From: a virus
DNA: 64,000 nucleotides
Reading direction: 5' to 3' (one strand)
Virus record (IMG/VR): IMGVR_UViG_3300045961_000282
Span: 1 to 64,000 of that record
The notes under the pieces are model-generated. The model did not search any database. It had not been told where the DNA came from and saw only the letters and a program-made list of their open reading frames with translations. Shown in pieces: positions 38,912-63,741 of this stretch (the stretch's first letter is position 1; each line of letters begins with the position of its first letter). The position numbers were made by a program, and so were the translations under genes.

Positions 38912-40015
38912 TTATAGTCGTTGGGCAGTAAGTGCGAGCGTAACGTTTTGCGTTGATGCAGAGTTATGGACCACGTATGGGACGATCTCGATCTGGCTGG
39001 TGTTGGACGCCCTGAATATCCATGACAACTCACCACCGGACATTCCGGTGCTACCGTTGATAGAGGAGAATTGAACTCTATCCGCAAGACCCATGGCGAG
39101 TCGAATGCCGATATTCATGTTGCCACCAAAAATTGCATGATAGACAACTAGAAAAACATCACCTGCTGAATGCCCATTGATTCGCAGGCTCGTTGAGGTC
39201 CATGTTGCCCAAATCGGTTGGGTTCCAGAAGGAGTCATCGCCGATGACAGGCCCCGCCACCCGGTTCCTGACGCAGTGCTGTTGTTTACCCACGCGTAAG
39301 CATGCTCAGAATCGGCTCGTCGATCAACGTAGCCTTTCGTGGCGATGCCCAGCGCAGCCGTTGGGTTGCCTGACACCGTCGCTAGCCCTGTTGCGCGATC
39401 GAAGAGCATGGCCGAGCCGAGCGGTGACCCATCGTCGGCGTACCGATTGACCGTCAAACTGCTCCCTGCGTTACCGCCACTCTCGACGTCAGGGTTTTTT
39501 GCGATCAGCCACCGAGTTTTTCCTGCCCTACTTCCAACCAGCATCCCGGCGTGGCCATCCGAGTAGGTGCGCAAATATGCCGTTGTGTCCTTGGAGAGGA
39601 TGAGATCACCGCTCATTGTGTCGCCAGTCTTGGCGACTTTTTGATCGGCATACTGCTTGGTAGCGGCAGCGTTTTGGTCCTGCGGATGATCGACGATCAA
39701 TTGCTCCAATTTTCCATCAAGTTTGTTTATCAATCGAACCTGTCCGGTCACCTCGGTCAGCCGGGCACTCTCCCATTCCGGACCAAGCCAATCTGTAAAT
39801 CCGATGTTCCCAGACATCATGTCGCCGGACTTCTGGACGAACGACGACACATCAGGAGCAGGCCCTTCCGGGCCCGACGGCCCTTCAGGCCCTTGGGCTC
39901 CGTCGGCTCCCGCAGGGCCTTGGGGGCCGGGGGGCCCTTGCGGTCCGCGGGGTCCCGCGATGTTCAGGGACTTCCACTCACCGGTATTTGGGTCGCGGTA
40001 CTTGATCGCGCCCAT
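38912..40015 (-). CDS. tail-fibre-like protein with N-terminal anchor motif and collagen-like repeat
   Basis: MGAIKYRDPNTGEWKSLN then GPRGPQGPPGPQGPAGADGAQGPEGPSGPEGP (G-X-Y x11). Confidence 0.65.
   Translation of the reverse strand: MGAIKYRDPNTGEWKSLNIAGPRGPQGPPGPQGPAGADGAQGPEGPSGPEGPAPDVSSFVQKSGDMMSGNIGFTDWLGPEWESARLTEVTGQVRLINKLDGKLEQLIVDHPQDQNAAATKQYADQKVAKTGDTMSGDLILSKDTTAYLRTYSDGHAGMLVGSRAGKTRWLIAKNPDVESGGNAGSSLTVNRYADDGSPLGSAMLFDRATGLATVSGNPTAALGIATKGYVDRRADSEHAYAWVNNSTASGTGWRGLSSAMTPSGTQPIWATWTSTSLRINGHSAGDVFLVVYHAIFGGNMNIGIRLAMGLADRVQFSSINGSTGMSGGELSWIFRASNTSQIEIVPYVVHNSASTQNVTLALTAQRL
39856..39958 (-). repeat. collagen-like G-X-Y coding repeat
   Basis: GGNCCN triplet periodicity on the minus strand. 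Confidence 0.6.
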
Positions 40016-40067
40016 CAGGCAGCCCTTTCCGAAATGAAATGCAGGTCATGAGAAATCATGCTATTTC

Positions 40068-40868
40068 TCAAATCTTTTTCATGATGTAGGTCAGGGCGTA
40101 ATAAGGTGGGCGGTTTTCGTGCGCCTGCCCGCCTCCCTCGGCTGTGATGCTGTGGCTGTGAACGTTGCTCTGACTCATCCAGCCCGTGGAGAAGTCGTGC
40201 TGGTGATCGGTGTTGACCACGCCTGCGTTCAGGTCATTCCAGTAGCCGCCCGGCGGCGCATCGGTATGTCGCTTGAGGACGTTGCCATCCCACCCACCCG
40301 CCTCTGGCGGCCCGCCCGTCCCGGTCCGCAGGCCAGTGCCGTGTCCGTGGGCGGCGTTGTAGCCGTCTGCCTGATGTCCCGTGCGCCCCGAGTGCGTATG
40401 GTTCACATCGACCTGTGACGTGCTGCCCGTGTGGTTGTGCCACGGCACGTGCTCGATCCCAAGGGTCACCGCCGCCGCGCCACCCGTCGCGCCGTTGGCG
40501 TAGCCCGCACCGGCCCCGACGACGAACCTGTCCCGCAGGTCCGGGGTCGTTGCGGACCCGATGATGGCCTGCAGTTCGGTCGACCCGTGGGCGCTGCCGT
40601 CGCACAGGTGCCACCCCTCCGGAGCGACCGACCCGCCGTAGGCGATCACCGCGCCGATCGGCATGGCGGCATTGAGTTCGGCCCTCTGCACGAACGTCGA
40701 CGTGTCCGGTGCGGGACCCTCGGGCCCCTGCGGACCATCGGCCCCTGCGGGCCCTGCGGGCCCTTCGGGGCCCTGTGGGCCGGGGGGCCCCTGAGGGCCA
40801 CGGGGGCCTGCCGTGTTCAGGGACCGCCACTCACCCGTGTCCGCGTCGCGGTACTTGATGACAGCCAT
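40068..40868 (-). CDS. tail-fibre-like protein: anchor motif, collagen-like repeat, phage tail-collar domain
   Basis: MAVIKYRDADTGEWRSLN, G-X-Y x11, collar motif PIGAVIAYGGSVAPEGWHLCDGS. About 78% nt identity to the 5-prime end of 38912..40015. Confidence 0.7.
   Translation of the reverse strand: MAVIKYRDADTGEWRSLNTAGPRGPQGPPGPQGPEGPAGPAGADGPQGPEGPAPDTSTFVQRAELNAAMPIGAVIAYGGSVAPEGWHLCDGSAHGSTELQAIIGSATTPDLRDRFVVGAGAGYANGATGGAAAVTLGIEHVPWHNHTGSTSQVDVNHTHSGRTGHQADGYNAAHGHGTGLRTGTGGPPEAGGWDGNVLKRHTDAPPGGYWNDLNAGVVNTDHQHDFSTGWMSQSNVHSHSITAEGGGQAHENRPPYYALTYIMKKI
40709..40811 (-). repeat. collagen-like G-X-Y coding repeat
   Basis: G-X-Y x11. Confidence 0.6.
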
Positions 40869-41335
40869 CAGACCGCCTTCTTCTTCTTGGGCTCCGGCTC
40901 TGGTTCACGCTCAACCTCAGGCTCAAGTTCCGGCTGAGCCTCGCCCTCGATCTCAATCTCGGGTTCGTACCCGAACTCGACCTCAGGCTCCGGTTCGTAC
41001 CCCACCTCGGATTCAGGGGCGGCCTCGTATCCAGTCTCGGGTTCGACCTCGGGCTCGTATTCAAAGTCCGGCTCAGGCTCAACCTCGGGCCGATATCCGA
41101 CCTGATCGTCGATGCCGAAGTAGGAGCCCAGCCCCGCCGACACCAGTCCGATGACGCCCGTGCCCAGCACCAGCAGCAGCCCCGTCTCGGCATCGCCGAG
41201 GTTACGGGTCGAGTTCAGTGCGCCCCACAGCACGGCAAAGGTGAGCAGCAGGAACAGGATGCACACCGCAGAGGTGAGCATGATCACGACGCGGGTCACT
41301 CCGGGGTGCGGTTCGCGCTCCATGTCAACGCCCAT
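40868..41335 (-). CDS. membrane protein with acidic EPEVEPE-repeat C-terminus
   Basis: Two TM helices then EVEPEPDFEYEPEVEPETGYEAAPESEVGYEPEPEVEFGYEPEIE; 1-nt TGATG overlap with the downstream gene. Confidence 0.5.
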   Translation of the reverse strand: MGVDMEREPHPGVTRVVIMLTSAVCILFLLLTFAVLWGALNSTRNLGDAETGLLLVLGTGVIGLVSAGLGSYFGIDDQVGYRPEVEPEPDFEYEPEVEPETGYEAAPESEVGYEPEPEVEFGYEPEIEIEGEAQPELEPEVEREPEPEPKKKKAV

Positions 41336-41627
41336 TTATCGACCTGCGGCCGAAGTATCGACCGATGATCGTCGACAGCAGCGACAGCACGCCGCCGGTC
41401 AGGGTCAGGATCAGGTTCTGGGCGTTGCTGGACAGATCAAGTCCGGGCTCACCGGAGGAAGAATCGATCACGATGCCGATGCCCACCATCATGAAGAACA
41501 CCAGAACCGCTCCGGCGGCGATCTGAAGGGCGATCAGGAACCCCGCGTCGAGGTCGCCGCTCCACGCCTTGCCTATCCCACCCTGCTCTTTCTGGGGAGA
41601 GTTGGAGGGGCTAGTCACATCGCTCAT
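41325..41627 (-). CDS. membrane protein (2 TM)
   Basis: LIALQIAAGAVLVFFMMVGIGIVI and ILTLTGGVLSLLSTIIG helices. Confidence 0.5.
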   Translation of the reverse strand: MSDVTSPSNSPQKEQGGIGKAWSGDLDAGFLIALQIAAGAVLVFFMMVGIGIVIDSSSGEPGLDLSSNAQNLILTLTGGVLSLLSTIIGRYFGRRSINGR

Positions 41628-41869
41628 GGCGCTCCTTCCGCGCTTCTCATCTCAGCGATCAGATGTTCCAGAGATTCGATTCTGGTCAGGATGTCGGTCA
41701 TGGTTGCGTCATCCCGCGAAGGCAAGCGCGTCGAGGTGTTGACCCATAACTTGACGTCAGGATCGGTGGGCTCAGTGGGAGAGACCTCGATCTCATCGAG
41801 GGGGTCCCGGGGAACGACCAGTGGAACCCACTTGCCGCCAGCGAGATCGCGGTAGTACAGGATGGCCAC
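41624..41869 (-). CDS. short anchor-motif protein (fibre N-terminal module only)
   Basis: MAILYYRDLAGGKWVPLVVPRDP ... KLWVNT; no fibre body. Confidence 0.5.
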   Translation of the reverse strand: MAILYYRDLAGGKWVPLVVPRDPLDEIEVSPTEPTDPDVKLWVNTSTRLPSRDDATMTDILTRIESLEHLIAEMRSAEGAP

Positions 41870-41871
41870 AG

Positions 41872-42636
41872 TCAGGCCCCCTTGTAGATTATGTGGTTCA
41901 GCGCGAAGTAGGGCGGCATGATCGAGAAGGGCGCGCTTCCGCCGTCAGAAGGAATGGGGTGCGCATGCGGGCCACTGCCGACCTGCCGCAGCATGCTCGG
42001 ATCCCCCTCCAGCAGGGCGGGGTCGATCTGCCACCTGTCCGCGTCGCCCGTGGCCCCCTCGCCCGCGGGCCCCGTCGCGCCACCGTGGTTGTGGCGGGGC
42101 ATGTTGCTCACGGTCAGCGCGACCCGCTCGGCCCCGCCCTTGCTTCCGTGGGGGTATCCGTTGCCTGAGACCAAGATGAACCCGCTGCGCAGGTCGGGGG
42201 TGCGGTCGCTGCCCAGCACCTCTTCGAGAGCCGGAGAGCCGTGCACCGTCCCGTCACACAGGTGCCACCGCGGCGGCGCCAGTCGGCCCCCGAATGGGAC
42301 GATCACTCCGATCGGAACCGAGCCCTGTGAGTCGACGCGCTCGTCGACGTACTCCTTGGTCGCCGCATGGAACGGCTCGTGTGGCGGGCCCACCAGCGAC
42401 AATGGACCCAGCATCCGGTCACCGTCGGCATTGACGAACCGCTTGTCCAAGAAGGTCCAGCCGTCGACCTCGTCTGCGGTGCGAACGACATCATCGGACG
42501 TGTCGATCCAGATCTCGTAGCCGCCCTCCTTGATCGGCGGCTGCGCACCGCCGATCTGCACCTCTTCGGCCAAATCCGTCGTGGCAAACGGACGCCACTC
42601 ATCATCCGCGGGGTCGCGGTAGTACAAAGTGGGCAC
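41872..42636 (-). CDS. tail-fibre-like protein with anchor motif and tail-collar domain
   Basis: GTG start after GGAGG RBS: VPTLYYRDPADDEWRPF; collar motif PIGVIVPFGGRLAPPRWHLCDGTVHG. Confidence 0.6.
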   Translation of the reverse strand: MPTLYYRDPADDEWRPFATTDLAEEVQIGGAQPPIKEGGYEIWIDTSDDVVRTADEVDGWTFLDKRFVNADGDRMLGPLSLVGPPHEPFHAATKEYVDERVDSQGSVPIGVIVPFGGRLAPPRWHLCDGTVHGSPALEEVLGSDRTPDLRSGFILVSGNGYPHGSKGGAERVALTVSNMPRHNHGGATGPAGEGATGDADRWQIDPALLEGDPSMLRQVGSGPHAHPIPSDGGSAPFSIMPPYFALNHIIYKGA

Positions 42637-42831
42637 GGTCGGCCTCCAGCGGGGTGCGGCGCAGCACGAATGTACCAACGGGGCCCCGTGCGGGCGGGGC
42701 GTTTCTGCAACGGTCGTCAAGCAATGTCAGACCCCCCGCCTAGGGTCGCAGTGTGGGTTCGGAACCGGGCCCGGCACCGCGATCCTGATAGGGTTACGGC
42801 AGCATCACCAACGACACAAGGAAGGTCTCCC
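42637..42831. promoter_or_regulatory. divergent intergenic region
   Basis: About 195 nt between divergent genes; GGAAGG RBS before 42832. Confidence 0.35.
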
Positions 42832-43551
42832 ATGGCATCCACCCCCTACGACGACGACTACCAGTCCGTCGCCGAGCGCATCGCGATCTTCCGCACCAAG
42901 CACCCGGATGGGAGCCTGTGCGCCCTTGACCCGGCCAAGCCGTTCGAGATCGTCCACGTCGGCGACAAGGTTTTCATCGCCGTCACCGCGGCGGCCTATC
43001 GCAGTCCCGAGGATCCGGCCCCCGGCGTCGGGCTGGCGTGGCAGGTGTTCCCCGGCACCGACGAGTACACCCGCGACAACGAGTTGATGATCGCCCAGAC
43101 CTCGGCGTGGGGCCGGGCCATCGTCGCCGCGCTGGCCGCCGATGCCAAGAAGATCGCCACCAAGGACGAGGTCCGCGCGGCGCAGTCCAACCGAGCCCCT
43201 GCCAACCCGGCCCCGAGCGCCGCGAGCGCCAACGGCACGGCGGTCAAGCAGGAGGAGCCCCCGCAGTCCACCGACCCCACGGCGGAGTTGTACAACTCGG
43301 CTGTGGTCGATGAGGCGATGCGCCTGATGAAGGCGCCCACCACCACCTATGACGAACTGCGCGACGTCTGGCAGATGCTCTCGCAGGCGCGACTGGGCGC
43401 CCGGCGCATCGACCCGCCGCCCGGCATGGATGCCGATGGCGATGGCAAGGTCCCGATCCTCTCGGCGGTCGCCTTCGTGGGCAAGCAGCGCAAGGAGAAC
43501 GCCCCCGCCGCGCAGACCGAACTGGCGGTCAACGAGAAGGGTGCGAAGTGA
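42832..43551 (+). CDS. putative recombination (single-strand annealing) protein, tentative
   Basis: GGAAGG RBS; start MASTPYDDDYQSVAERIAIFRTKHPDGS. Immediately upstream of, and GTGA-coupled to, the Cas4-like nuclease. Function inferred from context only. Confidence 0.4.
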   Translation: MASTPYDDDYQSVAERIAIFRTKHPDGSLCALDPAKPFEIVHVGDKVFIAVTAAAYRSPEDPAPGVGLAWQVFPGTDEYTRDNELMIAQTSAWGRAIVAALAADAKKIATKDEVRAAQSNRAPANPAPSAASANGTAVKQEEPPQSTDPTAELYNSAVVDEAMRLMKAPTTTYDELRDVWQMLSQARLGARRIDPPPGMDADGDGKVPILSAVAFVGKQRKENAPAAQTELAVNEKGAK

Positions 43552-45608: not shown

Positions 45609-45743
45609 CCCACATCCCAGAGGGCCCCGAAAGCATCGACGCTTCCGGGGCCCTCGGCGTTCGTGGGCACCTTCGGCGGTGCTAGGTTTGAAAGGTCCCG
45701 TTGGGGACACGGACGCCCCCATGGGGGCACTAGGGAGAAGAAG

Positions 45744-46889: not shown

Positions 46890-46900
46890 TACCCCAACGC

Positions 46901-46930
46901 CAAAGGGCCCCGGCTCTCCGGGGCCCTTTG
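46901..46930. terminator. bidirectional rho-independent terminator
   Basis: CAAAGGGCCCCGG-CTCT-CCGGGGCCCTTTG between convergent genes. Confidence 0.7.
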
Positions 46931-46941
46931 CTTGCGCCTAC

Positions 46942-47518: not shown

Positions 47519-49198
47519 TCATTCCCAGATCGTGTACTTGATCTCCAGCCATGGCTTGTTGCTCGAACTGTGATTGTCGGCGTAACCGTAGTAACTGTTC
47601 GACGTCGAGGGCCCCGGGCCCAGAGCGATGCCCTTGGCGCCGCTGAGGAACTTGCTGCGTATGGTTGCGTTCAGGGTCATGTCGACCCAGCCCGGCTTCG
47701 GGGCACTTCCGTTCTGCTGCAGGTCGGTGCTCGCCGATCCGAACTTGGTCGGCTTGCTGCCGTTGGTATGCGTCCCGATGGGGATGTTGCCGCCCGAGTT
47801 GTTGTAGTGGTGCCGGTTGTAGAACTTCAGGCGCACCGAGGTGACCGACACGGCGCTGGACAGGTTGGGAACGGAGAAACCGATCAGCGAGCGCTGGTTG
47901 CCATGGATCGATGAGTAGTAGCCGTAGTACAGGTAGGACCCGGCGTCAGTGCGCTGCGTGCTGTCGCCGTCATAGGACTGCGACCACGATGCATTGCCAC
48001 TCCACGTCTTGGTGACCAACTGCCGGACGGTCACCCCGACTCCGTTCGACGTCGACCCGAGATAGGCTCCGTTGGCCACGTACTCCGCGTAGTAGGTGGT
48101 GCTTCCGCCGGGGGCGACGCCCACCGACGCGGCGCCGCCCGCAACACCCGCCGTGGCAACGACGCCTCCCGACGGAGACCCTGCGCGGAAGTACACCGTG
48201 CCGCTGGGGGCTCCACCGACATAGGCGGTCAGCGTCAGGGATTGCCCGTTGTTGATCGTCCCCGTGGAGGCTGCCAGCGAGATGCTGGTGGGGTAGTAGA
48301 CCGAGATGGTCACGTAGTTCGAGGTCGACGCGAGGTAGTAGCCGTTGGCGACGTACTGCGCCTGATAGGACGTCGACACCCCCGGCGCCACCGCGATCGA
48401 GGCTGCGCCGCCGGAGACCCCGGCAGACCCGATGATTGCGCCGTTGGACCAGAAGTACACCGTGCCGCTGGCGGCGCCGCTGACATAGGCCGTCAGAGTG
48501 GCTGCCTGCCCGTTGTTGATCGTTCCCGTGGATGCCGCCAGCGAGATGCTGGTGGGGTAGTAGACCGCCACAGCGACCCCGCCCGAAGTCGAACCGAGGT
48601 AGTTTCCGTTGGCGACGTACTGGGCGTAGTAGGTGGTCGCCGCACCGGGGGACACGGTGGCAACAGCCCTGCCCCCGGAAACGCTGGCCGTGGCCGCGAT
48701 GGCGCCCGATGCAGACCCCGAACGGAAGTACACGGTTCCCGATGTCGCCCCGGTCACCGTGGCCGTCAGGGTGACAGCCTCTCCATTGTTGATGCTTGCC
48801 GCCGAGGCCGCCAGCGAGATGCTGGTGGGGTAGTTGACCGTCACGGCGACGCCGCCGGAGGTGGAACTCTTCCACGGCGGGTTCTCGACGAATTCTGCGT
48901 AGTAGGTGGTGCTGGCGCCGGGGTTGACGGTGACCTGCCACGGGCTGCTGGTGCTGGTGGCCACGATGGTCCCGGAGGGTGAGCCGGAACGGAACCGAAC
49001 GGTCGAGTTCAGCGGAACGCCCGCCGTCGGCGTCGCCGTGAGGGTGATCCCCGACCCGTAGTTGATCGTTGTCGCCGATGCCGACAGCGAGATGGTCGTG
49101 GCCTTCTGGTACTCCCAGACCAGTACCGCCCCCTTGTAGACGCGCCAGACCTGTGCGCCCCCCCACTTGACGTTCTTCGCTGTGTTCAGAAGCGGCAT
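47519..49198 (-). CDS. tail protein with five tandem Ig-like (BIG-like) domains
   Basis: About 90-aa repeats TSISLAASTGTINNGQ..TLTA.V.GA.SGTVYF.....YYA.YVANG.YL.STS..V.V.VYYP, x5. Confidence 0.6.
   Translation of the reverse strand: MPLLNTAKNVKWGGAQVWRVYKGAVLVWEYQKATTISLSASATTINYGSGITLTATPTAGVPLNSTVRFRSGSPSGTIVATSTSSPWQVTVNPGASTTYYAEFVENPPWKSSTSGGVAVTVNYPTSISLAASAASINNGEAVTLTATVTGATSGTVYFRSGSASGAIAATASVSGGRAVATVSPGAATTYYAQYVANGNYLGSTSGGVAVAVYYPTSISLAASTGTINNGQAATLTAYVSGAASGTVYFWSNGAIIGSAGVSGGAASIAVAPGVSTSYQAQYVANGYYLASTSNYVTISVYYPTSISLAASTGTINNGQSLTLTAYVGGAPSGTVYFRAGSPSGGVVATAGVAGGAASVGVAPGGSTTYYAEYVANGAYLGSTSNGVGVTVRQLVTKTWSGNASWSQSYDGDSTQRTDAGSYLYYGYYSSIHGNQRSLIGFSVPNLSSAVSVTSVRLKFYNRHHYNNSGGNIPIGTHTNGSKPTKFGSASTDLQQNGSAPKPGWVDMTLNATIRSKFLSGAKGIALGPGPSTSNSYYGYADNHSSSNKPWLEIKYTIWE
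47900..49100 (-). repeat. tandem coding repeat of about 270 bp, 4-5 copies
   Basis: Protein-level repeats listed above; nucleotide periodicity is evident. Confidence 0.55.
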
Positions 49199-49938: not shown

Positions 49939-50451
49939 CTACCTCTCTGCCACGGCGAAGTAGTCCACTCGGGTCGCCGTGGTGTTGGTCCGATAGATGT
50001 ACAGCGTGAATCCGCCCGTGCTCGGACTATCTGTTGAAACGTTGACGACCGTTGTCCCGATGACCGAGGAGCGGGCCGAAACGACGAGCGTCGGGGTCAC
50101 CCGGAACCCGCCCTCTGCGTATCCGAATGCCGCCGACGTGTTGGTGTTCGCGACCGGGGTGATGACGACGCTGCCCGCCTTGATCATCCAGTAGTGGTCC
50201 TTGCCCGCGGGGCCCTGAGGTCCCTGTGGGCCTCCGCCACCCTGCGGCCCCTTGGCCCCACCCCATCCCGCAGGGCCCTTGGCTCCAGTGAGACCCTGCG
50301 GCCCCTTGGCCCCTGTGGCGCCAACCGCCCCCTTGGCCCCTGTGGGCCCGATCGCGCCCTTGGCTCCGGTGGGTCCCTGCGGCCCGCGATCGCCGCGCAG
50401 ACCGACGATCTCCCACTCCCCCTGCGAGTTGCGAATCTTGAGGACGGCCAT
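49939..50451 (-). CDS. collagen-like tail-fibre paralog with anchor motif
   Basis: MAVLKIRNSQGEWEIVGLRG then G-X-Y x22. Confidence 0.65.
   Translation of the reverse strand: MAVLKIRNSQGEWEIVGLRGDRGPQGPTGAKGAIGPTGAKGAVGATGAKGPQGLTGAKGPAGWGGAKGPQGGGGPQGPQGPAGKDHYWMIKAGSVVITPVANTNTSAAFGYAEGGFRVTPTLVVSARSSVIGTTVVNVSTDSPSTGGFTLYIYRTNTTATRVDYFAVAER
50199..50400 (-). repeat. collagen-like G-X-Y coding repeat
   Basis: G-X-Y x22. Confidence 0.6.
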
Positions 50452-50465: not shown

Positions 50466-51023
50466 TTGTATGGTTTGGGGATGATCTGCATTCATTGCGA
50501 CAGGCCCGTCCGCTGTCGAGCACTGTGCTCCATGCACTACCAGAGAGACCGCAAAGGACTTCCGATGACCGCTCCGGGCAGAGTGGTTATGAGAGGAGCC
50601 ACCGCCGAGGAGCGCCTGCTTGCTGGCTTGCCCGATAGGCCCGCGGACGGCTGCTGGATGTGGAGAAGATCCACGGCGCGCTTGGGCTACGGCAAGTTGT
50701 ACTGCGACGGTCGTCTTGTGTCCGCTCACCGGCTCGCATACGAGGTGTGGGTCGGACCTATCCCCGAAGGGGCGCATCTGCTCCACGGGTGCGACACGCC
50801 CGCCTGCTGCAACCCAGCGCACCTGCGTCCGGGGACGCATCAAGAGAACATGCAAGACATGGCTACGAAAGAGCGGAGTGGAAGCACCCGACTCTCCGCG
50901 GATCAGGTGCGCGCAATCCGCGCCGATGGGCGCACTTACGGAGACATCGCCGATACGTACAGCATCAGCCGCTCGATGGTCTACAAGATCAAAGCGCGCA
51001 TCTCGTGGCGACAGGTGAGTTGA
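50466..51023 (+). CDS. HNH homing endonuclease with C-terminal AP2/HTH-like DNA-binding domain
   Basis: CWMWRRSTARLGYGKLYCDGRLVSAHRLAYEVWVGPIPEGAHLLHGCDTPACCNPAHL (HNH); RLSADQVRAIRADGRTYGDIADTYSISRSMVYKI. Confidence 0.75.
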   Translation: MYGLGMICIHCDRPVRCRALCSMHYQRDRKGLPMTAPGRVVMRGATAEERLLAGLPDRPADGCWMWRRSTARLGYGKLYCDGRLVSAHRLAYEVWVGPIPEGAHLLHGCDTPACCNPAHLRPGTHQENMQDMATKERSGSTRLSADQVRAIRADGRTYGDIADTYSISRSMVYKIKARISWRQVS

Positions 51024-51026
51024 CAT

Positions 51027-51566
51027 CTAGTACGTCCCCCAAGCGATCCACGCAACACGGCAGTCGTCGGCCGAACCGCTTCGGTTATGCACGACTCCCA
51101 CCAATCCGTTTGCATTCACCTCGGTGATGCCCGCGCCATCCATGCTGTTTCCCCAGTTGTTCTTGACCCCGGTGCAAATAGCGCTGACCGATTGGTAGGA
51201 GAACCCGAAACCAGCACTCCACGTTGTGTACGAATTCGCGGGACAGGTGACGTAGGTCGCACCCCAGATGATCCGCCAGCGGGGTGTGCCGTACCCGCCC
51301 GAGGTCGGGTTCCCGTCATACCCGACTGGCCCCTGCCCCCCCGTGGGGCCGCGGTCACCCTGCGGCCCCTTGGGTCCCTGATCTCCCGTCTGGCCCTTGG
51401 GCCCCATGTCGCCTTGGGGCCCCTTGGCGCCCGCGTCCCCCGTGGCGCCCTTGGCCCCCATGTCACCCGTCGGCCCCTTGGCCCCTTGGGGCCCCGTTGG
51501 CCCAGCAGGCAGGGACAGCAGGGTCCATGCGCCATCGCTGGACCGGCGGTACCGCAAGACGCTCAT
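51027..51566 (-). CDS. collagen-like tail-fibre paralog
   Basis: [22 protein letters not shown] then G-X-Y x21. Confidence 0.65.
51311..51506 (-). repeat. collagen-like G-X-Y coding repeat
   Basis: G-X-Y x21. Confidence 0.6.
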
Positions 51567-52090
51567 GACGGTGACCCCACGCCCACGGCGATCCACTGCA
51601 CGTAGGTGCCAGTGGTGTTGCTGCGAACCACATTGACCTGTGACGACGTCATGCCGGGGCCGGTCATGGTGCCACAGGCGCGCACCGTTCCGGGGACCGA
51701 GGTGCGCGCCGAACAGATGACCGTCGGAAGTTGGGTGAACCCGTCGTAGTAGATGGTCACAGCCGTCGACGTGTTGGACACCGGGGTGATGTAGGCCTCG
51801 CCGCGACGGAAGGTGATCCCCGATGGAACGCCCGGAGCCCCTTGGGGGCCCTGCCCACCTTGGTAGCCCTGTGGGCCCTGATCCCCGGTTGGACCAGTCG
51901 GGCCCTGATCACCCGTAGGCCCAGTGGGCCCTTGATCACCCGTGAGTCCGGTCGGGCCCCGGTCCCCGACGGGCCCCACAGGTCCCTGATCTCCAGTGGG
52001 GCCAACGGGTCCCTGTGGTCCAGTGGGGCCCTTGAGGGGCAGGAGGGCCATCGCCCCCGTCCCCGAGTGACGGTACCTCAGGACGCTCAT
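51563..52090 (-). CDS. collagen-like tail-fibre paralog
   Basis: [21 protein letters not shown] then G-X-Y x23; ATGA overlap at 51563-51566. Confidence 0.65.
51826..52033 (-). repeat. collagen-like G-X-Y coding repeat
   Basis: G-X-Y x23. Confidence 0.6.
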
Positions 52091-52236
52091 GGGTAGTTCG
52101 AAGCCTCATCGATCCAGATCAGGATCGCCGGATCAGCGGGCTCCTGCGTTCCGACAGCAACCTGCTTCGGCTCCGGTGTCGCGAACGGCTTGAACTGCTG
52201 GTCGACCGGGTCGCGGTACCACAGGGTTGCCATCGG
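52087..52236 (-). CDS. short anchor-motif ORF (about 48 aa)
   Basis: [22 protein letters not shown]...[11 protein letters not shown]; ATGA overlap with 51563..52090; below the table cutoff. Confidence 0.35.
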
Positions 52237-55799: not shown

Positions 55800-55801
55800 T
55801 A

Positions 55802-57735: not shown

Positions 57736-57736
57736 C

Positions 57737-59227
57737 TCAACCCACCGCGATCCATTGAACGGTGTAGTTGGATGCGGCGTAGGGAGAGGAGTTGTAGACC
57801 ATGATCTCCGCCCAGTTCCCCGATTTCTGCCGGATGCTCACCGGTAGCGGTGGGCCAGACTTCGGGCTCAGCGTGAGGCCCGCGATGTCCCACGGCGCTG
57901 TGATCCCGAGGTAGGCCGCCGCGCCCTTGGCGATGGAGGGGAACGTCACCTGCCCCCCCGCGATGCGCGGGTGCAGATCTGCCCCCGCGGGCCCTTGCGG
58001 GCCCTGTATCCCGACCGCCCCCTTGTCGCCCGGGGGCCCAGTCGGCCCCTTGGGTGCGATACCCGCCACGCCGATGCCGGTGCAGACGATGCTCTCCATC
58101 CGCAGGATCGGCTCGCCTGACCCCTGACAGTCGAACAGAATCTCGAACACCGCCCACAATGGCCCCAATGCGGCGGCCTCGGCAGCAAGGGGCCCCGAGG
58201 TCGCTCCGATCCCGGGGGTCGCCGTCACGGAGGCGTACACGTCGCGACTCGAACCGCCGCGGGCGTTGATGTAGTTCTGGTCGATGACCGTGGTGGCCGC
58301 CCACGTGGTTCCCTGATCGAACGACACCCGCAGCAGGACGCGCGCCCCGTTGAGCAACTGGGCGCCCGCCTTTATCTGGATCGTCATCTGGCAGGGCACG
58401 TTTGCACGCGCCAGACCGAACTTCCATGCGCGGGCGTAGTTCCCGATCGGCCGCGGCAGGGTGCCGACAAAACCGTCGCCACCTTCGGTGTTGTAGTCGA
58501 TGACGTTGCCATCCATGCCGTTGAGGCGACAGCCCGTCGGTTCCTTGTTTGTATGTGGCGCCGGAGCGCAGATGCCAGTCGGGTCAGTGGGTCGAACAGT
58601 CCACTCGGCCCAGAACCACGACCACGTTGGGGAGAACCGCCCCGGCGACTTGGGTCCTGCCCCTCGGTCGTTGAACGCCGGGTCGTAGAACGGTGTCACA
58701 CCCTTGGTGGCCATCCAGTCGCCCTGCCCACGGGTGTACTGCCCGCCGGGAAACCGCCATTCATTGACGCTGCTGGCATTGACAGCGAGCGCCTGCCCGG
58801 GCTGCGGGAGGTAGGCCTTTGTGGGCCATTTGTAGGGCTTGGTGTTGGTGCCCAGTTGCACCACGGGCCCCGTCAGCCCTGCATCGGTGGCCTGATACCC
58901 GATGGCGATGCTGTCCTCGTTGTCAGTGCGCGCCTCTGCGCCGACGGCCACGGAGTTGCGGCCCCGGGCGCGCGAACCATACCCGATCGCAACAGCGCCG
59001 GTGGTGGCCTCGGTGCCGTTGAGCAACGTCGCCCCGGCGCCCAGTTGCTCCGGGGTCTGCGTGGTCATCGCCAGCGCCCCGCCGTCATTCAGCGCGATCT
59101 TGAGTCCGCCGATGTCGGCGACCTGCGAGATGCTGTCGTCGGAAGCGGTGGCTTCAAGGGTCAGCGCAGGGCCCGGCCCCGGAGCGATCATCCGCCCGAA
59201 GTGCTCGATCCGCTGACGCCATTTCAC
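57737..59227 (-). CDS. tail-fibre-like protein with C-terminal collagen repeat
   Basis: GTG start with GTGA overlap at 59224-59227; GIAPKGPTGPPGDKGAVGIQGPQGPAGA. N-terminal 74 aa of the table ORF rejected. Confidence 0.5.
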   Translation of the reverse strand: MKWRQRIEHFGRMIAPGPGPALTLEATASDDSISQVADIGGLKIALNDGGALAMTTQTPEQLGAGATLLNGTEATTGAVAIGYGSRARGRNSVAVGAEARTDNEDSIAIGYQATDAGLTGPVVQLGTNTKPYKWPTKAYLPQPGQALAVNASSVNEWRFPGGQYTRGQGDWMATKGVTPFYDPAFNDRGAGPKSPGRFSPTWSWFWAEWTVRPTDPTGICAPAPHTNKEPTGCRLNGMDGNVIDYNTEGGDGFVGTLPRPIGNYARAWKFGLARANVPCQMTIQIKAGAQLLNGARVLLRVSFDQGTTWAATTVIDQNYINARGGSSRDVYASVTATPGIGATSGPLAAEAAALGPLWAVFEILFDCQGSGEPILRMESIVCTGIGVAGIAPKGPTGPPGDKGAVGIQGPQGPAGADLHPRIAGGQVTFPSIAKGAAAYLGITAPWDIAGLTLSPKSGPPLPVSIRQKSGNWAEIMVYNSSPYAASNYTVQWIAVG

Positions 59228-59487
59228 TTGAAGACCACCCAGTTCACACTGATGTCGCGCGTGGCCCGAAGGGTCAGGGTGTTGGCATCCTTCACAGCCA
59301 CGTCGAGCATGACCATCTCGTTGCCCTCGTAGAAGGTTGCGCTGACGCCGGTGTCGCCGAGGTTGTGGGCGACATCCAGCGGGGTGTGGGCAACCAGCGT
59401 CGCACTGCCGATGGCCTTGGACTTGCTTGACCCCTGAACTGGGATCCACTCATTGAGCGTCGGGTCGCGGTAGTACAGAACTGCCAT
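59224..59487 (-). CDS. short anchor-motif protein
   Basis: MAVLYYRDPTLNEWIPVQGSS. Confidence 0.5.
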   Translation of the reverse strand: MAVLYYRDPTLNEWIPVQGSSKSKAIGSATLVAHTPLDVAHNLGDTGVSATFYEGNEMVMLDVAVKDANTLTLRATRDISVNWVVFK

Positions 59488-59578
59488 CAGTTGCTCCTCG
59501 GTTCAGCGACGACGGACGCCCCTTCGGTCTGTTCGCATGGTACGGACCAACGCGCGGGGGCACACCGAAATACCCTCA

Positions 59579-60424
59579 TCAGGTCCTCCGAAGGGTGTAC
59601 TCGGCGTTGATGTTCAGCCACGCAGGATTCACGGCCTTGGCGGAGACCAGTTGGATCGAATGTCCTGCCGCATCAGGTTTTGCGTCCATGCGCATGGATG
59701 CCGCCGATCCACCCGCCCACACAATTGGCGCCATGGCTTCGATCAGGATGTTGCCCACCAGTGGTCGAGGGTGTGTGAACGTCAGGACGAGATCGAACGG
59801 CGGAGCCTGCCCGAGCGCACCACCGCTGTTGGTGAGCAGTCCGCGCAACTGCCATCGGTTCAGGTCATGGCTGACACGCCACTGACCGGAGTGGTAGTTG
59901 GCATCCCCGAAAGCAGCCCATCGAGGGGCAACGGTGCATCGAACGGCGCTCCCGGGCAGATCGGTGTGTACCGGCTGCCACGCTGAGAACTCTGGGTCGG
60001 GGCCCAGTGAAACGGGCTCCGACCCCAACCAGCACCACTGGCCAACCGGAATCGTTGCAGAGTCGATGACCGCATACAGGTAGTGGTGGATCCCCTCCGT
60101 TGGGGTTGGGGAAAGGTCAATCCTGAACATGTCATTCGACTCAGTGCCAAATGCAGCGATAGAGCGCAGAATGGTCCGAGCCGTTGGCTTCTGGAATGCC
60201 AATGATTCGTCTGCGTAGCAGTACAGAATGTCTGGTCGTCCGGTTTGATTGGCCGTTACCTTGACCAAGCCTCGATACTGGACGTACCCCCGCTCTCGGT
60301 GGTACCGCCACTGGGGCTGTGCCCAACTTGGATGGTAGCGAGTGAATGCTCCTGAGAGAACGGCGTAGGGCCGGGGGCCCGAATATCCAGATTCGTGGAC
60401 GGGGAGCCACGGTGACCACGTCAT
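59579..60424 (-). CDS. hypothetical tail-region protein
   Basis: Large clean ORF; ATGA overlap at 60421-60424. Confidence 0.5.
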   Translation of the reverse strand: MTWSPWLPVHESGYSGPRPYAVLSGAFTRYHPSWAQPQWRYHRERGYVQYRGLVKVTANQTGRPDILYCYADESLAFQKPTARTILRSIAAFGTESNDMFRIDLSPTPTEGIHHYLYAVIDSATIPVGQWCWLGSEPVSLGPDPEFSAWQPVHTDLPGSAVRCTVAPRWAAFGDANYHSGQWRVSHDLNRWQLRGLLTNSGGALGQAPPFDLVLTFTHPRPLVGNILIEAMAPIVWAGGSAASMRMDAKPDAAGHSIQLVSAKAVNPAWLNINAEYTLRRT

Positions 60425-61413
60425 AGGTCACCGCCAATCGGAAATATGCATTCCAAGTTGAACCACATTCCGTTCGGAATTGGATGCCCGGGCTTCACGT
60501 ACAAAGACTGAACCTGATGGTGATAGGTGGCGTGCGCACCACAGTCGTAGCGCGCCGCCATTCCGGTCCAGAGCGACGTCACATTCTCTCCGACGAGGCC
60601 GAAGGACATGGATAGTGTCGTCGGCTTCGGCAACACTCCGGGGTCCATGGACGACACGATGATCACCTCGCCGTAGTCGAGGGCCTTCAATGCCTTTGCC
60701 AACCCCCGGTACTCGACGATCTTCGCCGTAGGGGAGTACCGCCACATCACGCGGTGATGGTCGCCCCCGTCGTAGTGGGTCGCGTTGCCGTTGAACCATG
60801 CTTCGGGGCCGGTCCCGCTCGGAGAGGCCTTGACCTCCATCCATGGCGACCACGTGTCGACCTGACTCGGCACAGATTCGGGCAGCCAGCGGGAGCCGTC
60901 CCAGAACCGGGCATCCTCCCACTGGGAGCCGTCCCACCCCTTGATCTCTGGCTTCCACTGGGTGCCATCCCATGCAACCGGGACCGGCGCATCCCACAGG
61001 GTCAGGTTGCGCACCCAGATCCGTTGCCCCGCTGGGGCGACGTCGTAGAGCATGTCGACCCAGAGCAGCGGATTGCGGTCATGGACCTTCGCGGCCCCCT
61101 GTGCAACCCGCCACGTCGAGTCGCCGATGAGCATTCCATATCCGCTGTAGTTGGTATGCCCACCTGCCATTCCGCCGATGTAACCGTTCACTTCCGCGCG
61201 GTACTCGCAGGTGATCCAGTAGATCTGGTGGCTGATCGGATCGATGGCCGCCGGGGCCTGAAAGAGGCTGTCCCGGTGGCTGTGGTACGTGATCTCGGTG
61301 CACCACTGGGAATCGATCTGCTTGGCCTCAAAGGTGACGGCTCCGTCGGCCGCTATGCCCGACTTCTTCCAACCCTGAGTCAGTGCATGGTTGGCTCGGG
61401 CGATCGCCCTCAC
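60421..61413 (-). CDS. tail-region protein with W-D-G-[ST]-x-W short repeats
   Basis: WDGTQWKPEIKGWDGSQWEDARFWDGSRW. Confidence 0.5.
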   Translation of the reverse strand: MRAIARANHALTQGWKKSGIAADGAVTFEAKQIDSQWCTEITYHSHRDSLFQAPAAIDPISHQIYWITCEYRAEVNGYIGGMAGGHTNYSGYGMLIGDSTWRVAQGAAKVHDRNPLLWVDMLYDVAPAGQRIWVRNLTLWDAPVPVAWDGTQWKPEIKGWDGSQWEDARFWDGSRWLPESVPSQVDTWSPWMEVKASPSGTGPEAWFNGNATHYDGGDHHRVMWRYSPTAKIVEYRGLAKALKALDYGEVIIVSSMDPGVLPKPTTLSMSFGLVGENVTSLWTGMAARYDCGAHATYHHQVQSLYVKPGHPIPNGMWFNLECIFPIGGDL

Positions 61414-61820
61414 AGCGGGACCCAGATCTGCCCGACCGGCGGGTCGGCCGGGGCACTGTGGCTGACGATCACGAAGTTCTGCAACTGCGCCTTCGTTGCG
61501 TACTGCGGGTGCGGATCGGCGGCCTGCTCATGCTCGGCGATGCGCTGCTGCGCCGAGCCGCGCGGGTCGTAGAGCGAGTCGGCCTCGGCGTGGGTGAGGT
61601 ACTTCGAGGTCTCGACGCTGGCGTCGGGATCCAGCCACAGGTCCAAGCCCTCGCGCGGCGCGGGCTCGCCCTCTTGGATCAGGATCTCCTCGGGCACGAA
61701 GATGTTGCCATCCGTGCCGATGACCGCATTGTTGCCCGGGTCGATCGACGGCTCGGGCTTGGGCTGGACCAGCGGGACGAACTCGCCAGTTGCTGGGTCC
61801 TTGTACTTCAGGGTGGGCAT
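61410..61820 (-). CDS. anchor-motif protein
   Basis: MPTLKYKDPATGEFVPLVQPKP; ATGA overlap at 61410-61413. Confidence 0.5.
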   Translation of the reverse strand: MPTLKYKDPATGEFVPLVQPKPEPSIDPGNNAVIGTDGNIFVPEEILIQEGEPAPREGLDLWLDPDASVETSKYLTHAEADSLYDPRGSAQQRIAEHEQAADPHPQYATKAQLQNFVIVSHSAPADPPVGQIWVPL

Positions 61821-61914
61821 CGGTGGCTCCCATCGATCGTCGCGCGCGCCCGCGGCTACCTGTGCGTCAGGGTAGTGGTCGACCCTTGCTCAGCAAGGGC
61901 GATTTCGCACCCAG

Positions 61915-63741
61915 TCACGCGGTGCGCCATGACGCGTTGAGGACGATCCATGCGTCCGTGTTGATCGTGACGCTCGGGTTGCACATCATCTGAACCGTGC
62001 CGCTGGTCTCGAACGAAACCCTTCCCATCGCCCATGCTTCGGGATCGGCCCGGTTGGTCAATACCAGCGCGATCTGGTTCGCCAACTCCGCCGGGCGGTA
62101 CCCGACAGGAACGGTACACAGGACATTGTTGACGTTCCTACCTGTCGTCAACGCCGCGCCCGTCCTACGGAACAGGGCGGAGAAGATGACGATCTGCCCA
62201 ACCCGAGTTACCTTCGCTGCCGCATAGGCGCCCCAGTCTGGGGCATACGCACACTCGACCGTGCCCTTGCCTGCCATTTCGTCGGCGTACGCCTTGGTGG
62301 CCGCATCCTCAGCCACCGAGGGGGTCGCCACTTGGAGTTGGACGAGGTTGCCAAACCCTCCATCCTTGACCTGCATCCGGTTGTTCGACCCCAGACCAAT
62401 GGTTTGGAAGGACACGCCCGGCTTGTGGAACCGAATCCTCGGGTCGGCCGCGTTCTGCACCTCGAAGCCCAGTTGGGCAGTGTTGGTCAACTGCCCAGAC
62501 ATCGTGTCGCCAGTTTCGTTGACCTTACCTGCCAGTGCGGTGGAAACCGCATTCTGACTGGGCGCCTGATCGGTGATGGAGCCCGGAGACATGGAATTGA
62601 TAACTCTGCCGTTGGCATAGGCCTTTGAGGCGTTGACACTCATTGCCCTGTCGGTCTCAGATCCTGCCGAAGTGTTCAGGATTTTTCCGTCGACATATCC
62701 CTTAGTGGCAATTCCAAGATTCGTGGTTGGACTTCCGACAATTTCAATAAGACCAGTTTGATTGCTGATTCTCAAAGCATCGGTGGCCGACGCATAGTCC
62801 TTGCGCCACAGCCGGAACCGCACGTCGCCAGCATCTGCGCCGAGCGAGACTACCTGCGCCACCCACCCCCATCCATCGCGCGCCAACGTCAGGGCCGAAT
62901 CGCCAGTGGGGGACGCGACGGCAAGGGCGTTGGCGTGGCCGCTGGCATCTGCGGTTACTTCGAGTCGAGGGGTTCTCAAAGTTCCGGTCATGCTGTCGCC
63001 ATCGACGTTGACGTACCGCAGGTCGGCCTGCTCCAAGGTCAGACCGCCGCCCGAGTCATCGTCTGTGTCGACCCAGATCTCGATGTTCGGGTCGACAGGC
63101 TGTTCTGCGTCGACCCAGACCTCTTTGACTCCGCCGCCGCTGGATGCCGTGACCGGGATCCACATGTCGTGGTCGGTGGAGTAGACGTGGGTCTTCGCGT
63201 CGCCGTGGGTGACATTGAATACCCGGATGCCGAAGACCTCGCAGGTTGCGCCGCCAAGCAACTCGATGCCGAACTCCTGCGGGGCCTTGTGCATAGAGGT
63301 CAGGGATATGGTTTGTTCCTCGTCCTGAACCTCGGCGAGTTTCCCGCTGACGACGAAACTCTGGGAGACGCGCACCTCGCCAGTCACCTTGCGTACGTCG
63401 AACTCGACGTGGATCGCGTCGCCGTCCTGCCAGCCAGAGGCGTCGTACTGCGCCCGCGCAAGGCCCTTGCTCGCAGGGCCAGTCAGGCGCACCACTCCGC
63501 CGCCCAGAGTCGTCAGAGCGACAGAGTCATAGCCGAATCCAAAGTTCAGTCTCCACTGGGTGGCGTTGGCGCCCCAGCCTGCAGTGATCAGGTTCGGCGC
63601 GATGGGTTCGATCCACACCATGCCCGCGGCGTAGAACTCCGGCGCGCTGGTGCCCACGTAGGGCTCGGCTCCGGCATCCCCCGTCGACACGAGGGGAATC
63701 CACTGGTCCGTGACGGGATCGCGGTACCACAGTTTCGCCAT
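61915..63741 (-). CDS. large tail-fibre-like protein with anchor motif and E-I-W-V-D repeats
   Basis: MAKLWYRDPVTDQWIPLVSTGD; EVWVDAEQPVDPNIEIWVDTDDD; KGYVDGK and KAYADEMAGKG motifs as in 53916..55439. Confidence 0.6.
   Translation of the reverse strand: MAKLWYRDPVTDQWIPLVSTGDAGAEPYVGTSAPEFYAAGMVWIEPIAPNLITAGWGANATQWRLNFGFGYDSVALTTLGGGVVRLTGPASKGLARAQYDASGWQDGDAIHVEFDVRKVTGEVRVSQSFVVSGKLAEVQDEEQTISLTSMHKAPQEFGIELLGGATCEVFGIRVFNVTHGDAKTHVYSTDHDMWIPVTASSGGGVKEVWVDAEQPVDPNIEIWVDTDDDSGGGLTLEQADLRYVNVDGDSMTGTLRTPRLEVTADASGHANALAVASPTGDSALTLARDGWGWVAQVVSLGADAGDVRFRLWRKDYASATDALRISNQTGLIEIVGSPTTNLGIATKGYVDGKILNTSAGSETDRAMSVNASKAYANGRVINSMSPGSITDQAPSQNAVSTALAGKVNETGDTMSGQLTNTAQLGFEVQNAADPRIRFHKPGVSFQTIGLGSNNRMQVKDGGFGNLVQLQVATPSVAEDAATKAYADEMAGKGTVECAYAPDWGAYAAAKVTRVGQIVIFSALFRRTGAALTTGRNVNNVLCTVPVGYRPAELANQIALVLTNRADPEAWAMGRVSFETSGTVQMMCNPSVTINTDAWIVLNASWRTA

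Follow-up and report, generated by a model that had tools for sequence, protein, structure and literature searches.

Secondary receptor-binding proteins of Klebsiella phages and of phages K1-5 and SP6 carry short conserved N-terminal docking peptides, and receptor-binding proteins of this type number 11 in PhiK64-1 and 10 in RaK2 (PMC6872550); the interaction made by such a docking peptide has been tested experimentally (PMC13352976). Cutibacterium phage PA6 encodes a collagen-like tail protein, gp19, and an H-type lectin tail protein, gp17 (PMC3094311), and designed ABC collagen heterotrimers combine a basic, an acidic and a zwitterionic chain (PMC7824840). Here we describe positions 1 to 64,000 of the IMG/VR virus record IMGVR_UViG_3300045961_000282 (the whole stretch of 64,000 nucleotides is hereafter called the window), in which 12 genes of a cluster of minus-strand fibre genes (38912-63741) begin with the same N-terminal motif of ca. 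18 residues, hereafter the anchor. What is new here is this module, predicted to form a beta-hairpin, together with its unusual copy number; systems of multiple receptor-binding proteins with N-terminal docking peptides are already known. On balance, we lean towards reading the cluster as a multi-fibre adsorption apparatus that would re-use one N-terminal docking module.

A previous reading of the sequence alone (the sequence-only reading) had claimed one N-terminal motif for 12 genes. A 20-column hidden Markov model (HMM) built from these N-termini and run with filters off against the six-frame translation of the window bears this out, with exactly 12 matches (14.7-26 bits, E = 1.7e-9 to 7.5e-6; next best 1.9 bits), all on the minus strand and each at the start codon of an open reading frame (ORF) or at most two codons from one (Table 1). 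This set is far beyond chance, and the same model found zero copies in the 1-38.9 kb part of the window. The motif starts at residue 1 and reads M-[AGSP]-x-[LI]-x-[YIV]-[RKW]-[DNRH]-P-x-T-G-x-[WFYM]-x-[PSL]-[LIVF]. For g41872, first taken as a long ORF with a TTG start, the start is the GTG at 42636 (MPTLYYRDP...). A 13th anchored gene (MGVLKVWDEASGQYVPIVG, then collagen) is located ca. 3 kb past the window end on the Logan contig L001, which is identical to the window over 8.6 kb and reaches ca. 3 kb beyond it; this extension also holds two more fibre-like genes upstream. All 12 anchored ORFs of the window are uninterrupted; each has a ribosome-binding site resembling GGAG or else overlaps the preceding gene through ATGA, and their GC content is 0.60-0.91 at codon position 3 and 0.42-0.64 at position 2. 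Being intact, they are not pseudogenes.

To judge from the underlying DNA, the motif is conserved at the protein level, since anchors are on average 51% identical in nucleotides and no two of them share an exact run longer than 16 nt. The best pair is formed by the 5' ends of g38912 and g40068, with 73% identity over 199 nt and 80% over the first 54 nt, which is close to the ca. 78% first reported for these two fibres without matching it. By sequence, at least six or seven anchor subtypes can be told apart, namely WYRDPV (g61915, g52087), YYRD (g59224, g41872, g41624), KYRDxxTGEWxSL (g38912, g40068), KYKDP (g61410), KVWDE..QYV (g53916 and the 13th gene), YR[RH]S (g51027, g51563) and KIRN (g49939). 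The nearest relatives of each subtype are found in other metagenomes or phages and not in its own genome, so that what had been proposed as one common docking site may be several sites.

The bodies behind the anchor diverge, as had been claimed, and Pfam and PHROG matches confirm collagen segments and collar domains among them; W-x-D repeats are likewise confirmed. With gathering cut-offs of 27.2 bits for Collagen (PF01391) and 24 bits for both Collar (PF07484) and the H-type lectin family (PF09458), the collagen match is over the cut-off in g49939 (39.8 bits), g51027 (49.2) and g51563 (37.6) and under it in g38912 (22.1) and g40068 (24.4), yet the latter two have 11 clean triplets each; overall, the GXY runs of anchored genes comprise ca. 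11 to 23 triplets. The Collar match is over the cut-off in g40068 (28.9 bits) and just under it in g41872 (22.2 bits), a protein that also matches phrog_8469 (E = 1.8e-16) and, by blastp, g40068 (E = 2e-20). Repeated [LIVM]-W-[LIVM]-D modules are present in anchored bodies, the C-terminal Phage_tail_C motif of g53916 scores over the cut-off (PF24243, 28 bits), and the cluster proteins as a whole give many tail-fibre PHROG matches as well as matches to Collagen, Collar, Phage_tail_C and YadA_head. In blastp comparisons among window proteins the bodies are mosaic, with modules recurring in different combinations: those of g61915 are also found in g52364 (E = 1.9e-9), g53916 and g38912. These matches support the view that the anchored genes are fibre-like structural genes; ca. 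10 fibre-like genes without the motif are interspersed among them.

Outside this genome, a HMMER search of 1.84 billion representative proteins (E <= 1e-3) with the 12 window N-termini (30 columns) returned 157 matches. The motif occupies residues 1-5 onwards in 104 retrieved sequences, ca. 90 of which are not from the window; among these 104, which have a median length of 190 aa, collagen begins within the first 60 residues in 76 and a [LIVM]-W-[LIVM]-[DNE] module occurs in 26. The other 55 sequences retrieved have an internal match only, and those inspected are repeat proteins. Bodies found behind the motif elsewhere include a lectin-like head, Collar, a pectate-lyase-like beta-helix (L018) and Gp10_C/Collar (L155). 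Ten clusters whose annotation was looked up were labelled 'hypothetical protein', with one 'Collagen triple helix repeat', and all came from JGI, Logan and ENA metagenomes; no family member with a source name came from NCBI or UniRef. In IMG/VR, a degenerate DNA pattern for M-x2-L-x-Y-R-D-P-x4-W found 15 loci, of which eight have genuine members of the family where an ORF starts, frequently in tandem arrays of two or three, and two true members recovered by the DNA pattern search have M in place of the motif W. Among cultured phages, a recognisable copy is found in Actinomycetia phage DSL-LC01 only. In GTDB genomes, a strict pattern gave no match and a looser one, with at least 120 matches, gave no convincing member among the matches listed; by these patterns, the motif seems rare in bacterial genomes and prophages.

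Elsewhere the motif occurs in three copies per locus (L019, L022, L024, L029, L153), in two (L014, L020, L025, L152, L155) or in one (L009, L017, L018, L031, L156), these counts being minimums, with most loci spanning just 2-18 kb of their contig. Against one to three copies at ca. 15 other loci, the 12-13 copies found here are exceptional for the module, as the sequence-only reading had said of the number of paralogues. That reading had also considered that the motif might belong to a family present once per phage, with pseudogenes as additional copies, which does not fit the intact genes. The GC content of the family spans 27% (L155) to 71%. The anchored genes of L155 come immediately after baseplate genes (gp25-like and Gp10_C), and those of L018, L152 and L153 stand at the end of the structural genes, ahead of the lysis genes, as in the window. 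In silico, the motif is thus best described as a widespread, previously undescribed N-terminal module of phage fibre proteins, and one module placed before many unrelated bodies is the pattern that marks a shared virion-proximal end.

The motif is predicted to fold as a beta-hairpin. Individual propeller blades of the Kelch, WD40 and FG-GAP-like types match its profile, as does, in the PDB, the strand-turn-strand of Kelch blades (DPxTxEWxPV). An AlphaFold2 model of g52087 from a 15-sequence alignment has a predicted local distance difference test (pLDDT) score of 78 and displays two beta-hairpins, one formed by the anchor (strands 5-7 and 14-16) and the other by the W-I-D module (strands 25-28 and 39-42). 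In the family alignment these two elements are set apart by a collagen spacer of 0-9 triplets, so that the two hairpins would represent successive nodes on one trimeric axis and not one domain. A secreted-looking protein of 1133 aa, P0004, is made of 13 near-identical 47-residue units in which a nine-triplet collagen segment alternates with the hairpin (…YVDYNTGIVYVRDPEDNTKWVPLNG…); the use of the hairpin is therefore not confined to phage fibres and extends to internal nodes that link collagen segments.

In the multi-fibre reading that we favour, the region would be the distal adsorption module of a large actinobacteriophage. Three hairpins per trimeric fibre would form a first, virion-proximal node, directly behind which a collagen triple helix or another small beta node (E-V-x-V...P...L-W-V-D) would usually begin. 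The hairpin end would fix the fibre to the virion, and the differing bodies (collagen with an H-type-lectin-like head, tail-collar, GDxMTG repeats with various C-terminal domains) would give different binding specificities. Not all 12 genes would be separate fibres; the short collagen trio described below would probably be subunits of one. The multi-receptor-binding-protein system put forward in the sequence-only reading would then keep its shared N-terminal module and lose its single common site, in view of the anchor subtypes and of the trio as one fibre.

Several observations weigh against this reading. No candidate for an acceptor at which the hairpins would dock is found among the window proteins, the baseplate genes being located beyond the window, and no T4gp10-like branching domain, Gp10-type domain or other baseplate domain was detected in the window proteins scanned. 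P0004, which does not look like a phage protein, uses the hairpin as an internal collagen repeat, and the basic role of the hairpin may be structural, in capping or registering collagen, and not docking. The presence of all 12 proteins in the virion and their position on the tail as opposed to the head are, moreover, predictions from the gene sequences.

These points lead to an alternative that we consider unlikely, in which the hairpin is only a folding or registration cap that nucleates or ends collagen or the next beta node, with attachment to the virion by another part of the protein. Such a cap would agree with the GXY repeats found directly after the motif in 76 of the 104 N-terminal-motif members, with the 13 alternations of hairpin and collagen in the single chain of P0004, and with the need for a registration device in conserved three-chain sets of matched collagen length. 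However, collagen is absent behind the motif in five of the 12 window genes, as well as in family members such as P0112, P0127 and P0063; in all of these a collar or a W-x-D module follows at once. Moreover, the motif never starts later than residue 5 and its M-[ASPG] is conserved, suggesting that the free N-terminus has a role, and the conserved N-terminal end is normally virion-proximal in phage fibres, with nothing located N-terminal to the hairpin here (general knowledge and PMC6872550). The cap and the docking roles are in any case compatible with each other.

The three-chain sets concern g51563, g51027 and g49939 in particular (chains B, A and C in Table 1), whose heads of ca. 87 aa can be aligned with the heads encoded by tandem gene trios of L019/L029, L022 and L024. 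Across L019, L022 and L024, head identity within groups amounts to 38-65% (A-A), 49-56% (B-B) and 48-53% (C-C), as compared with 19-33% between groups; in the window, the head of g51027 is A-like, that of g51563 B-like and that of g49939 ambiguous between B and C. Collagen lengths are matched within each phage, with 30/30/30 triplets in L019, L029 and L024 and 23/22/23 in the window (22-23 for the third), while the collagen regions of the L022 trio each contain one interruption of one residue and all stop at residue 111. The window therefore resembles C1q in that three different chains, matched in the length of their collagen and paralogous in their heads, are kept as a set. The window trio further displays charge ladders: g51563 has Asp at position X of triplets 5, 8, 11, 14 and 17 and no Lys at Y (one Arg, in triplet 8; net charge -4), g51027 has Asp at X of triplets 5, 8, 11, 14 and 17 together with Lys at Y of triplets 3, 6, 9, 12 and 15 (net 0), and g49939 has Lys at Y of triplets 5, 8, 11, 14 and 17 and no Asp ladder (one Asp, in triplet 2; net +6). 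Acidic, zwitterionic and basic ladders are thus in register with a three-triplet period. Charge ladders are absent from the L019 and L024 trios.

Because the matched lengths and the charge ladders fit the principle of the designed ABC collagens, it is plausible that the three chains form one heterotrimeric fibre, a proposal that we regard as quite possible without expecting it to hold. Still more tentative is the broader proposal that the hairpin would be a universal 'first node' registering the chains, that the trio would be a C1q-like ABC heterotrimer with lectin-like heads, and that the anchor subtypes would encode both pairing and docking. If true, no heterotrimeric collagen fibre of natural origin would have been described in a phage before, and the fibre set would be combinatorial.

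The heads themselves are probably H-type-lectin-like, as suggested by profile comparisons. A consensus of 14 heads matched PF09458 at profile positions 6-66 of 67 with 17.4 bits (E = 0.0048), below the 24-bit cut-off, and the head of P0049 gave a sub-threshold 16.7 bits; single window heads gave no match to this family. Against PDB sequences, the best match of the heads was the galactose-binding lectin 3wmp, which we take to be the H-type lectin SLL-2, with a weak E value of 0.25. An AlphaFold2 head model from an alignment that mixed in YadA-type C-domains reached a pLDDT of 63, and a fold search with this model gave no usable result. Like the heads of the short collagen fibres, the PA6 lectin gp17 has ...NWIAVGV at its end.

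Three anchored genes are very short, and the sequence-only reading had described them as little more than an anchor, each coupled to a following fibre gene. Both parts stand for g52087, which consists of the anchor and one W-I-D module and has an ATGA overlap with a collagen fibre gene. With ca. 65 residues beyond its anchor, g59224 is therefore not anchor-only, and the gene downstream of it has an ambiguous start (ATG 59191, or GTG 59227 overlapping g59224); g41624, for its part, has an ATGA overlap into a two-transmembrane holin-like gene. The idea that g59224 is a stalk-less version of a collagen fibre was dropped, since hhalign shows no similarity to the lectin-like head profile. An orthologue of g52087, P0018 (62 aa), is found in L157/L158 with the same ...WIDExxNYP-stop ending and also keeps the ATGA overlap with a collagen fibre gene; conserved elsewhere, g52087 is therefore probably functional, with an adaptor and a site filler as possibilities. 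L157 (917 bp) and L158 (869 bp) are fragments of a relative, in which a gene with AWVQPTGxxDAYPxG...WEPGV repeats is followed by the mini gene and then by the collagen fibre gene, and they are the sole sign of a related phage in the collections searched. A 51-aa profile matched only the mini-ORFs of its own genome in the protein search.

The sizes of these ORFs (48, 81 and 87 aa), the lack of detectable homologues for g59224 and g41624, and the occurrence in Klebsiella phages of truncated receptor-binding proteins that keep the docking peptide (PMC6872550) would be in line with decay, in which most copies would be redundant or decaying, the mini-ORFs truncated remnants and few fibres functional. 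We consider this improbable: the 12 ORFs are all uninterrupted, with coding-type GC at codon position 3 and translation signals, the paralogues are old and diverged and not recent copies, and even the 48-aa g52087 has an orthologue with the same stop position and ATGA overlap.

It is likewise improbable that the anchored collagen proteins serve as fibres of the head or neck, or as a whisker-like decoration binding surfaces non-specifically. Collagen fibres with lectin-type heads would fit decoration or primary reversible adhesion, no acceptor structure was recognised among the window proteins and the genome is large (206-kb contig); the genes, however, sit in the tail-fibre/lysis region, tail-collar and tail-fibre repeat domains are present, and the anchored genes of L155 come directly after baseplate genes.

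Finally, the cassette proposal of the sequence-only reading, with the 5' module as a recombination handle for exchanging, switching or inverting cassettes in host-range change, is highly improbable and, as programmed switching, is rejected on the available sequence: the mosaic bodies and an HNH endonuclease gene inside the cluster make module shuffling over evolutionary time evident, and an exonuclease gene with its neighbour is found in a plus-strand island, but the anchors share too little DNA (see the identities above), all copies are co-oriented with their own start codon and ribosome-binding site, flanking inverted repeats are lacking (best arms 25-33 nt, 70-88% complementary, scattered), no invertase or recombinase domain occurs among the proteins scanned (small ORFs of 1-37 kb in part), and the Logan and JGI assemblies do not differ over their common 8.6 kb. 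Between 37 and 64 kb, the only long repeats are those of collagen, of the immunoglobulin (Ig)-like domains and of the g38912/g40068 5' ends, and no template/variable repeat pair (ca. 100 nt, adenine differences) was found; no reverse transcriptase domain was seen among the proteins scanned, a search that was not exhaustive.

The genes of the cluster and its surroundings are listed in Table 1. The 12 anchored genes stand as first listed, whereas the ca. 25-kb cluster of the sequence-only reading is in fact split by the HNH gene, by the plus-strand island and by two holin-like genes.

Table 1. Features of the fibre cluster and of other parts of the window, from high to low coordinates (motif start: minus-strand start coordinate of the anchored gene)
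Feature	Position	Strand	Motif start	Description
g61915, 608 aa	61915..63741	-	63741	Anchor MAKLWYRDPVTDQWIPL; motif HMM 26 bits; PHROG tail fibre matches; W-I-E module, beta domain common with g52364, EVWVD/EIWVDTDDD modules, GDxMTG repeats, C-terminal head
g61410, 136 aa	61410..61820	-	61820	Anchor MPTLKYKDPATGEFVPL, W-L-D module, HEQAADPHPQY motif, end ...PPVGQIWVPL; GTGA overlap with next gene
g60421, 330 aa	60421..61413	-		No anchor; fibre-like; WDGxxW repeats; C-terminal domain paralogous to g59579; no Pfam or PHROG match
g59579, 281 aa	59579..60424	-		No anchor; two copies of domain common with g60421
g59224, 87 aa, mini gene	59224..59487	-	59487	Anchor MAVLYYRDPTLNEWIPV and ca. 65 aa; HMM 23.2 bits
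Anchorless fibre-like gene, 484 or 496 aa	57737..59227	-		YadA_head 34.8 bits, short collagen, C-terminal domain ending VQWIAVG
Anchorless paralogue, 323 aa	56764..57735	-		Collagen run and C-terminal domain
Anchorless paralogue, 321 aa	55802..56767	-		YadA_head 27 bits, collagen run, C-terminal domain
g53916, 507 aa	53916..55439	-	55439	Anchor subtype MGVLKVWDEVSQQYVPIVG; collagen, three E-x-W-I-D modules, GDTMIG repeats; HMM 17.6 bits
g52364, 515 aa	52364..53911	-		No anchor; N-terminal domain common with g61915; fn3-like segment
g52087, 48 aa, mini gene	52087..52233	-	52233	Anchor and single W-I-D module; ATGA overlap with g51563; HMM 23.2 bits
g51563, 175 aa, chain B	51563..52090	-	52090	Degenerate anchor, 23 GXY triplets, 86-aa head, probably H-type-lectin-like
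g51027, 179 aa, chain A	51027..51566	-	51566	Anchor, 22 triplets, A-type head
Homing-type endonuclease	50466..51023	+		HNH_3 (Pfam, E = 1.8e-11), C-terminal helix-turn-helix
g49939, 170 aa, chain C	49939..50451	-	50451	Anchor shorter by one residue (MAVLKIRNSQGEWEIV), 22-23 triplets, lectin-like head
g49208, 122 aa	49208..49576	-		N-terminal PPxxPxxGxxYFDTT; C-terminal Phage_tail_C, PF24243 33.6 bits
559-aa protein	47519..49198	-		Four Ig-like Big_3_5 repeats (E = 4.4e-20) and C-terminal domain
Plus-strand island	42367-46889	+		Three genes, splitting the fibre cluster
g41872, 254 aa	41872..42636	-	42636 (GTG)	Anchor MPTLYYRDPADDEWRPF, E-I-W-I-D module, fibre repeat, collar-type C-terminal domain; HMM 14.7 bits
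g41624, 81 aa, mini gene	41624..41869	-	41869 (GTG)	Anchor, W-V-N module, short C-terminal helix-like segment
Two overlapping holin-like genes	41325-41627 and 40868-41335	-		Two-transmembrane, by sequence inspection only
g40068, 266 aa	40068..40868	-	40868	Anchor MAVIKYRDADTGEWRSL, 11 collagen triplets, tail-collar domain; phrog_1800 E = 4.4e-30
g38912, 367 aa	38912..40015	-	40015	Anchor and collagen stalk near-identical to g40068; GDxMSG repeats; different C-terminal domain
Right-handed beta-helix protein	37211..38488	-		No anchor; Pfam Beta_helix E = 6.3e-12
N6/N4 DNA methylase (475 aa) overlapping 790-aa protein	433-4213	-		Weak GHKL ATPase match in the 790-aa protein

Several of the anchorless proteins have features in common. 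Those encoded at 59579-61413 (minus strand) and at L001:2352-3113 are fibre-like and share W-rich repeats (WDGTQW, WDGSQW, WNGTRW...) together with a repeated domain of ca. 130 aa (W.PW..V...QWRY...YRGL.K) that has no family match. The three anchorless paralogues that follow g59224 (55802-59227) each have 8-10 collagen triplets and then a C-terminal domain of ca. 80-92 aa, with YadA_head matched in the first and third; they could be a second multi-chain set. A second N-terminal motif, PPxxPxxGxxYFDTT...W, is common to g49208 and L001:942-2348, with collagen after it in one of them, and looks like another small beta node at fibre N-termini. The Big_3_5 repeats of the 559-aa protein, which is probably structural or adhesive, are visible in the DNA with a period of 264-273 nt.

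The HNH_3 gene is inserted on the opposite strand between collagen chains A (g51027) and C (g49939). An opposite-strand gene judged by eye to be HNH-like is likewise found between anchored collagen genes in L024 (3030-3605), so that the association of a homing-type nuclease with the anchored collagen set may be recurrent. In the plus-strand island, the first gene matches phrog_23738 over residues 163-294 only, and its true start is therefore probably near residue 156. The second encodes a 686-aa exonuclease-type protein (phrog_1674/phrog_35747 'exonuclease', phrog_1706 'CRISPR/Cas system associated') that is interrupted by an intein (CLSPETPIL...VTHN/T; Intein_splicing E = 1.4e-5, under the cut-off), and the third a 408-aa protein with a hydrophobic N-terminal segment resembling, by eye, a signal peptide and with no family match. 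The two holin-like proteins share a ...G.YFG motif, and the second has a long acidic Pro/Glu repeat tail; with these genes amid fibre genes, lysis and adsorption functions are interleaved in the region. Downstream of the cluster, a protein that by eye is M23-peptidase-like, with a probable peptidoglycan-binding tail, adjoins the beta-helix protein (36464-38488, minus strand), and the two may be a lysin and a depolymerase or tailspike-like enzyme, respectively. Far from the cluster, the methylase and GHKL-like pair at 433-4213 may be a modification or anti-defence module. A promoter and terminator scan gave a single terminator-like hairpin (52330-52312), upstream of g52087, and was otherwise uninformative, and no transfer RNA gene was found in the window.

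The window has ca. 66% GC and carries nearly all its genes on the minus strand. Since its primase/helicase has 40-42% identity to those of Arthrobacter phages, next to many weaker matches in Microbacterium and Gordonia phages, the window is most likely part of a large, novel, uncultivated actinobacteriophage. The source of g61915 is a JGI contig of 206,257 bp, and the protein's own entry is its sole match in a database of 5.8e9 proteins. A 24-kb query found no nucleotide match by megablast in 50,697 records of cultured phages; against cultured phages, tblastn with g61915 gave none either, and with g61410 just weak matches of the DPHPQY motif to P2-like tail fibres. No IMG/VR locus related to g61915 or to the primase/helicase was found, nor any JGI metagenome contig when the gene upstream was used as query.

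The motif is usable as a marker of fibre genes when metagenomic phages of bacteria, high-GC or otherwise, are searched, and a genome with 12-13 genes sharing a docking end would be a natural test bed for the number of fibres per virion. Such a docking end would also make it simple to exchange one receptor-binding body for another, an approach already in use with Klebsiella phages. Should the trio prove heterotrimeric, it would offer a natural counterpart of the designed ABC collagens and a compact model of chain selection in collagen.

With regard to known systems, the Gin cassette of Mu, the Cin cassette of P1 and diversity-generating retroelements are likewise ways to display alternative fibre tips and differ from the locus described here, in which all genes are complete and co-oriented; the inverted crossover repeats and serine invertase of Gin/Cin were not found, with no invertase among the proteins scanned (small ORFs of 1-37 kb partly so). 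C1q and the designed ABC collagens (PMC7824840) likewise have three paralogous chains of matched length with globular C-terminal heads; the heads of C1q are of the gC1q type, whereas those of the window are probably H-type-lectin-like, in a putative heterotrimer. Phage PA6 likewise has its collagen-like tail protein gene just before endolysin and holin genes, but it carries lectin and collagen on separate proteins in one copy each, compared with 12 anchored genes in the window, and its gp19 has a hydrophobic N-terminus with no hairpin motif.

The closest parallel is with the phages of the Klebsiella type (KP32, KP34, the Menlow group, PhiK64-1/RaK2; K1-5/K1E; SP6). These, too, have clusters of fibre or spike genes in which variable bodies are preceded by a short N-terminal peptide that is conserved and that truncated versions retain, and the number of genes is of the same order (10-11 in RaK2/PhiK64-1 versus 12-13 anchored genes here); clustered genes for putative receptor-binding proteins sharing a short N-terminal peptide are indeed found in the 12 window genes and in the one outside. 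A primary receptor-binding protein with an anchor and a T4gp10-like branching domain was not detected among the window proteins scanned; the distant family member L155 adjoins Gp10_C/Collar proteins. The peptide itself differs in sequence and is here a predicted beta-hairpin. Klebsiella-type phages use several unrelated peptides and one anchor domain, whereas a single motif extends across 12-13 genes here, and their bodies are beta-helix depolymerases, in contrast to the collagen, lectin-like and collar fibres of the window. Unlike those phages, finally, the virus described here probably has an actinobacterial host, and its motif belongs to a family that extends across very distant phages (27-71% GC).

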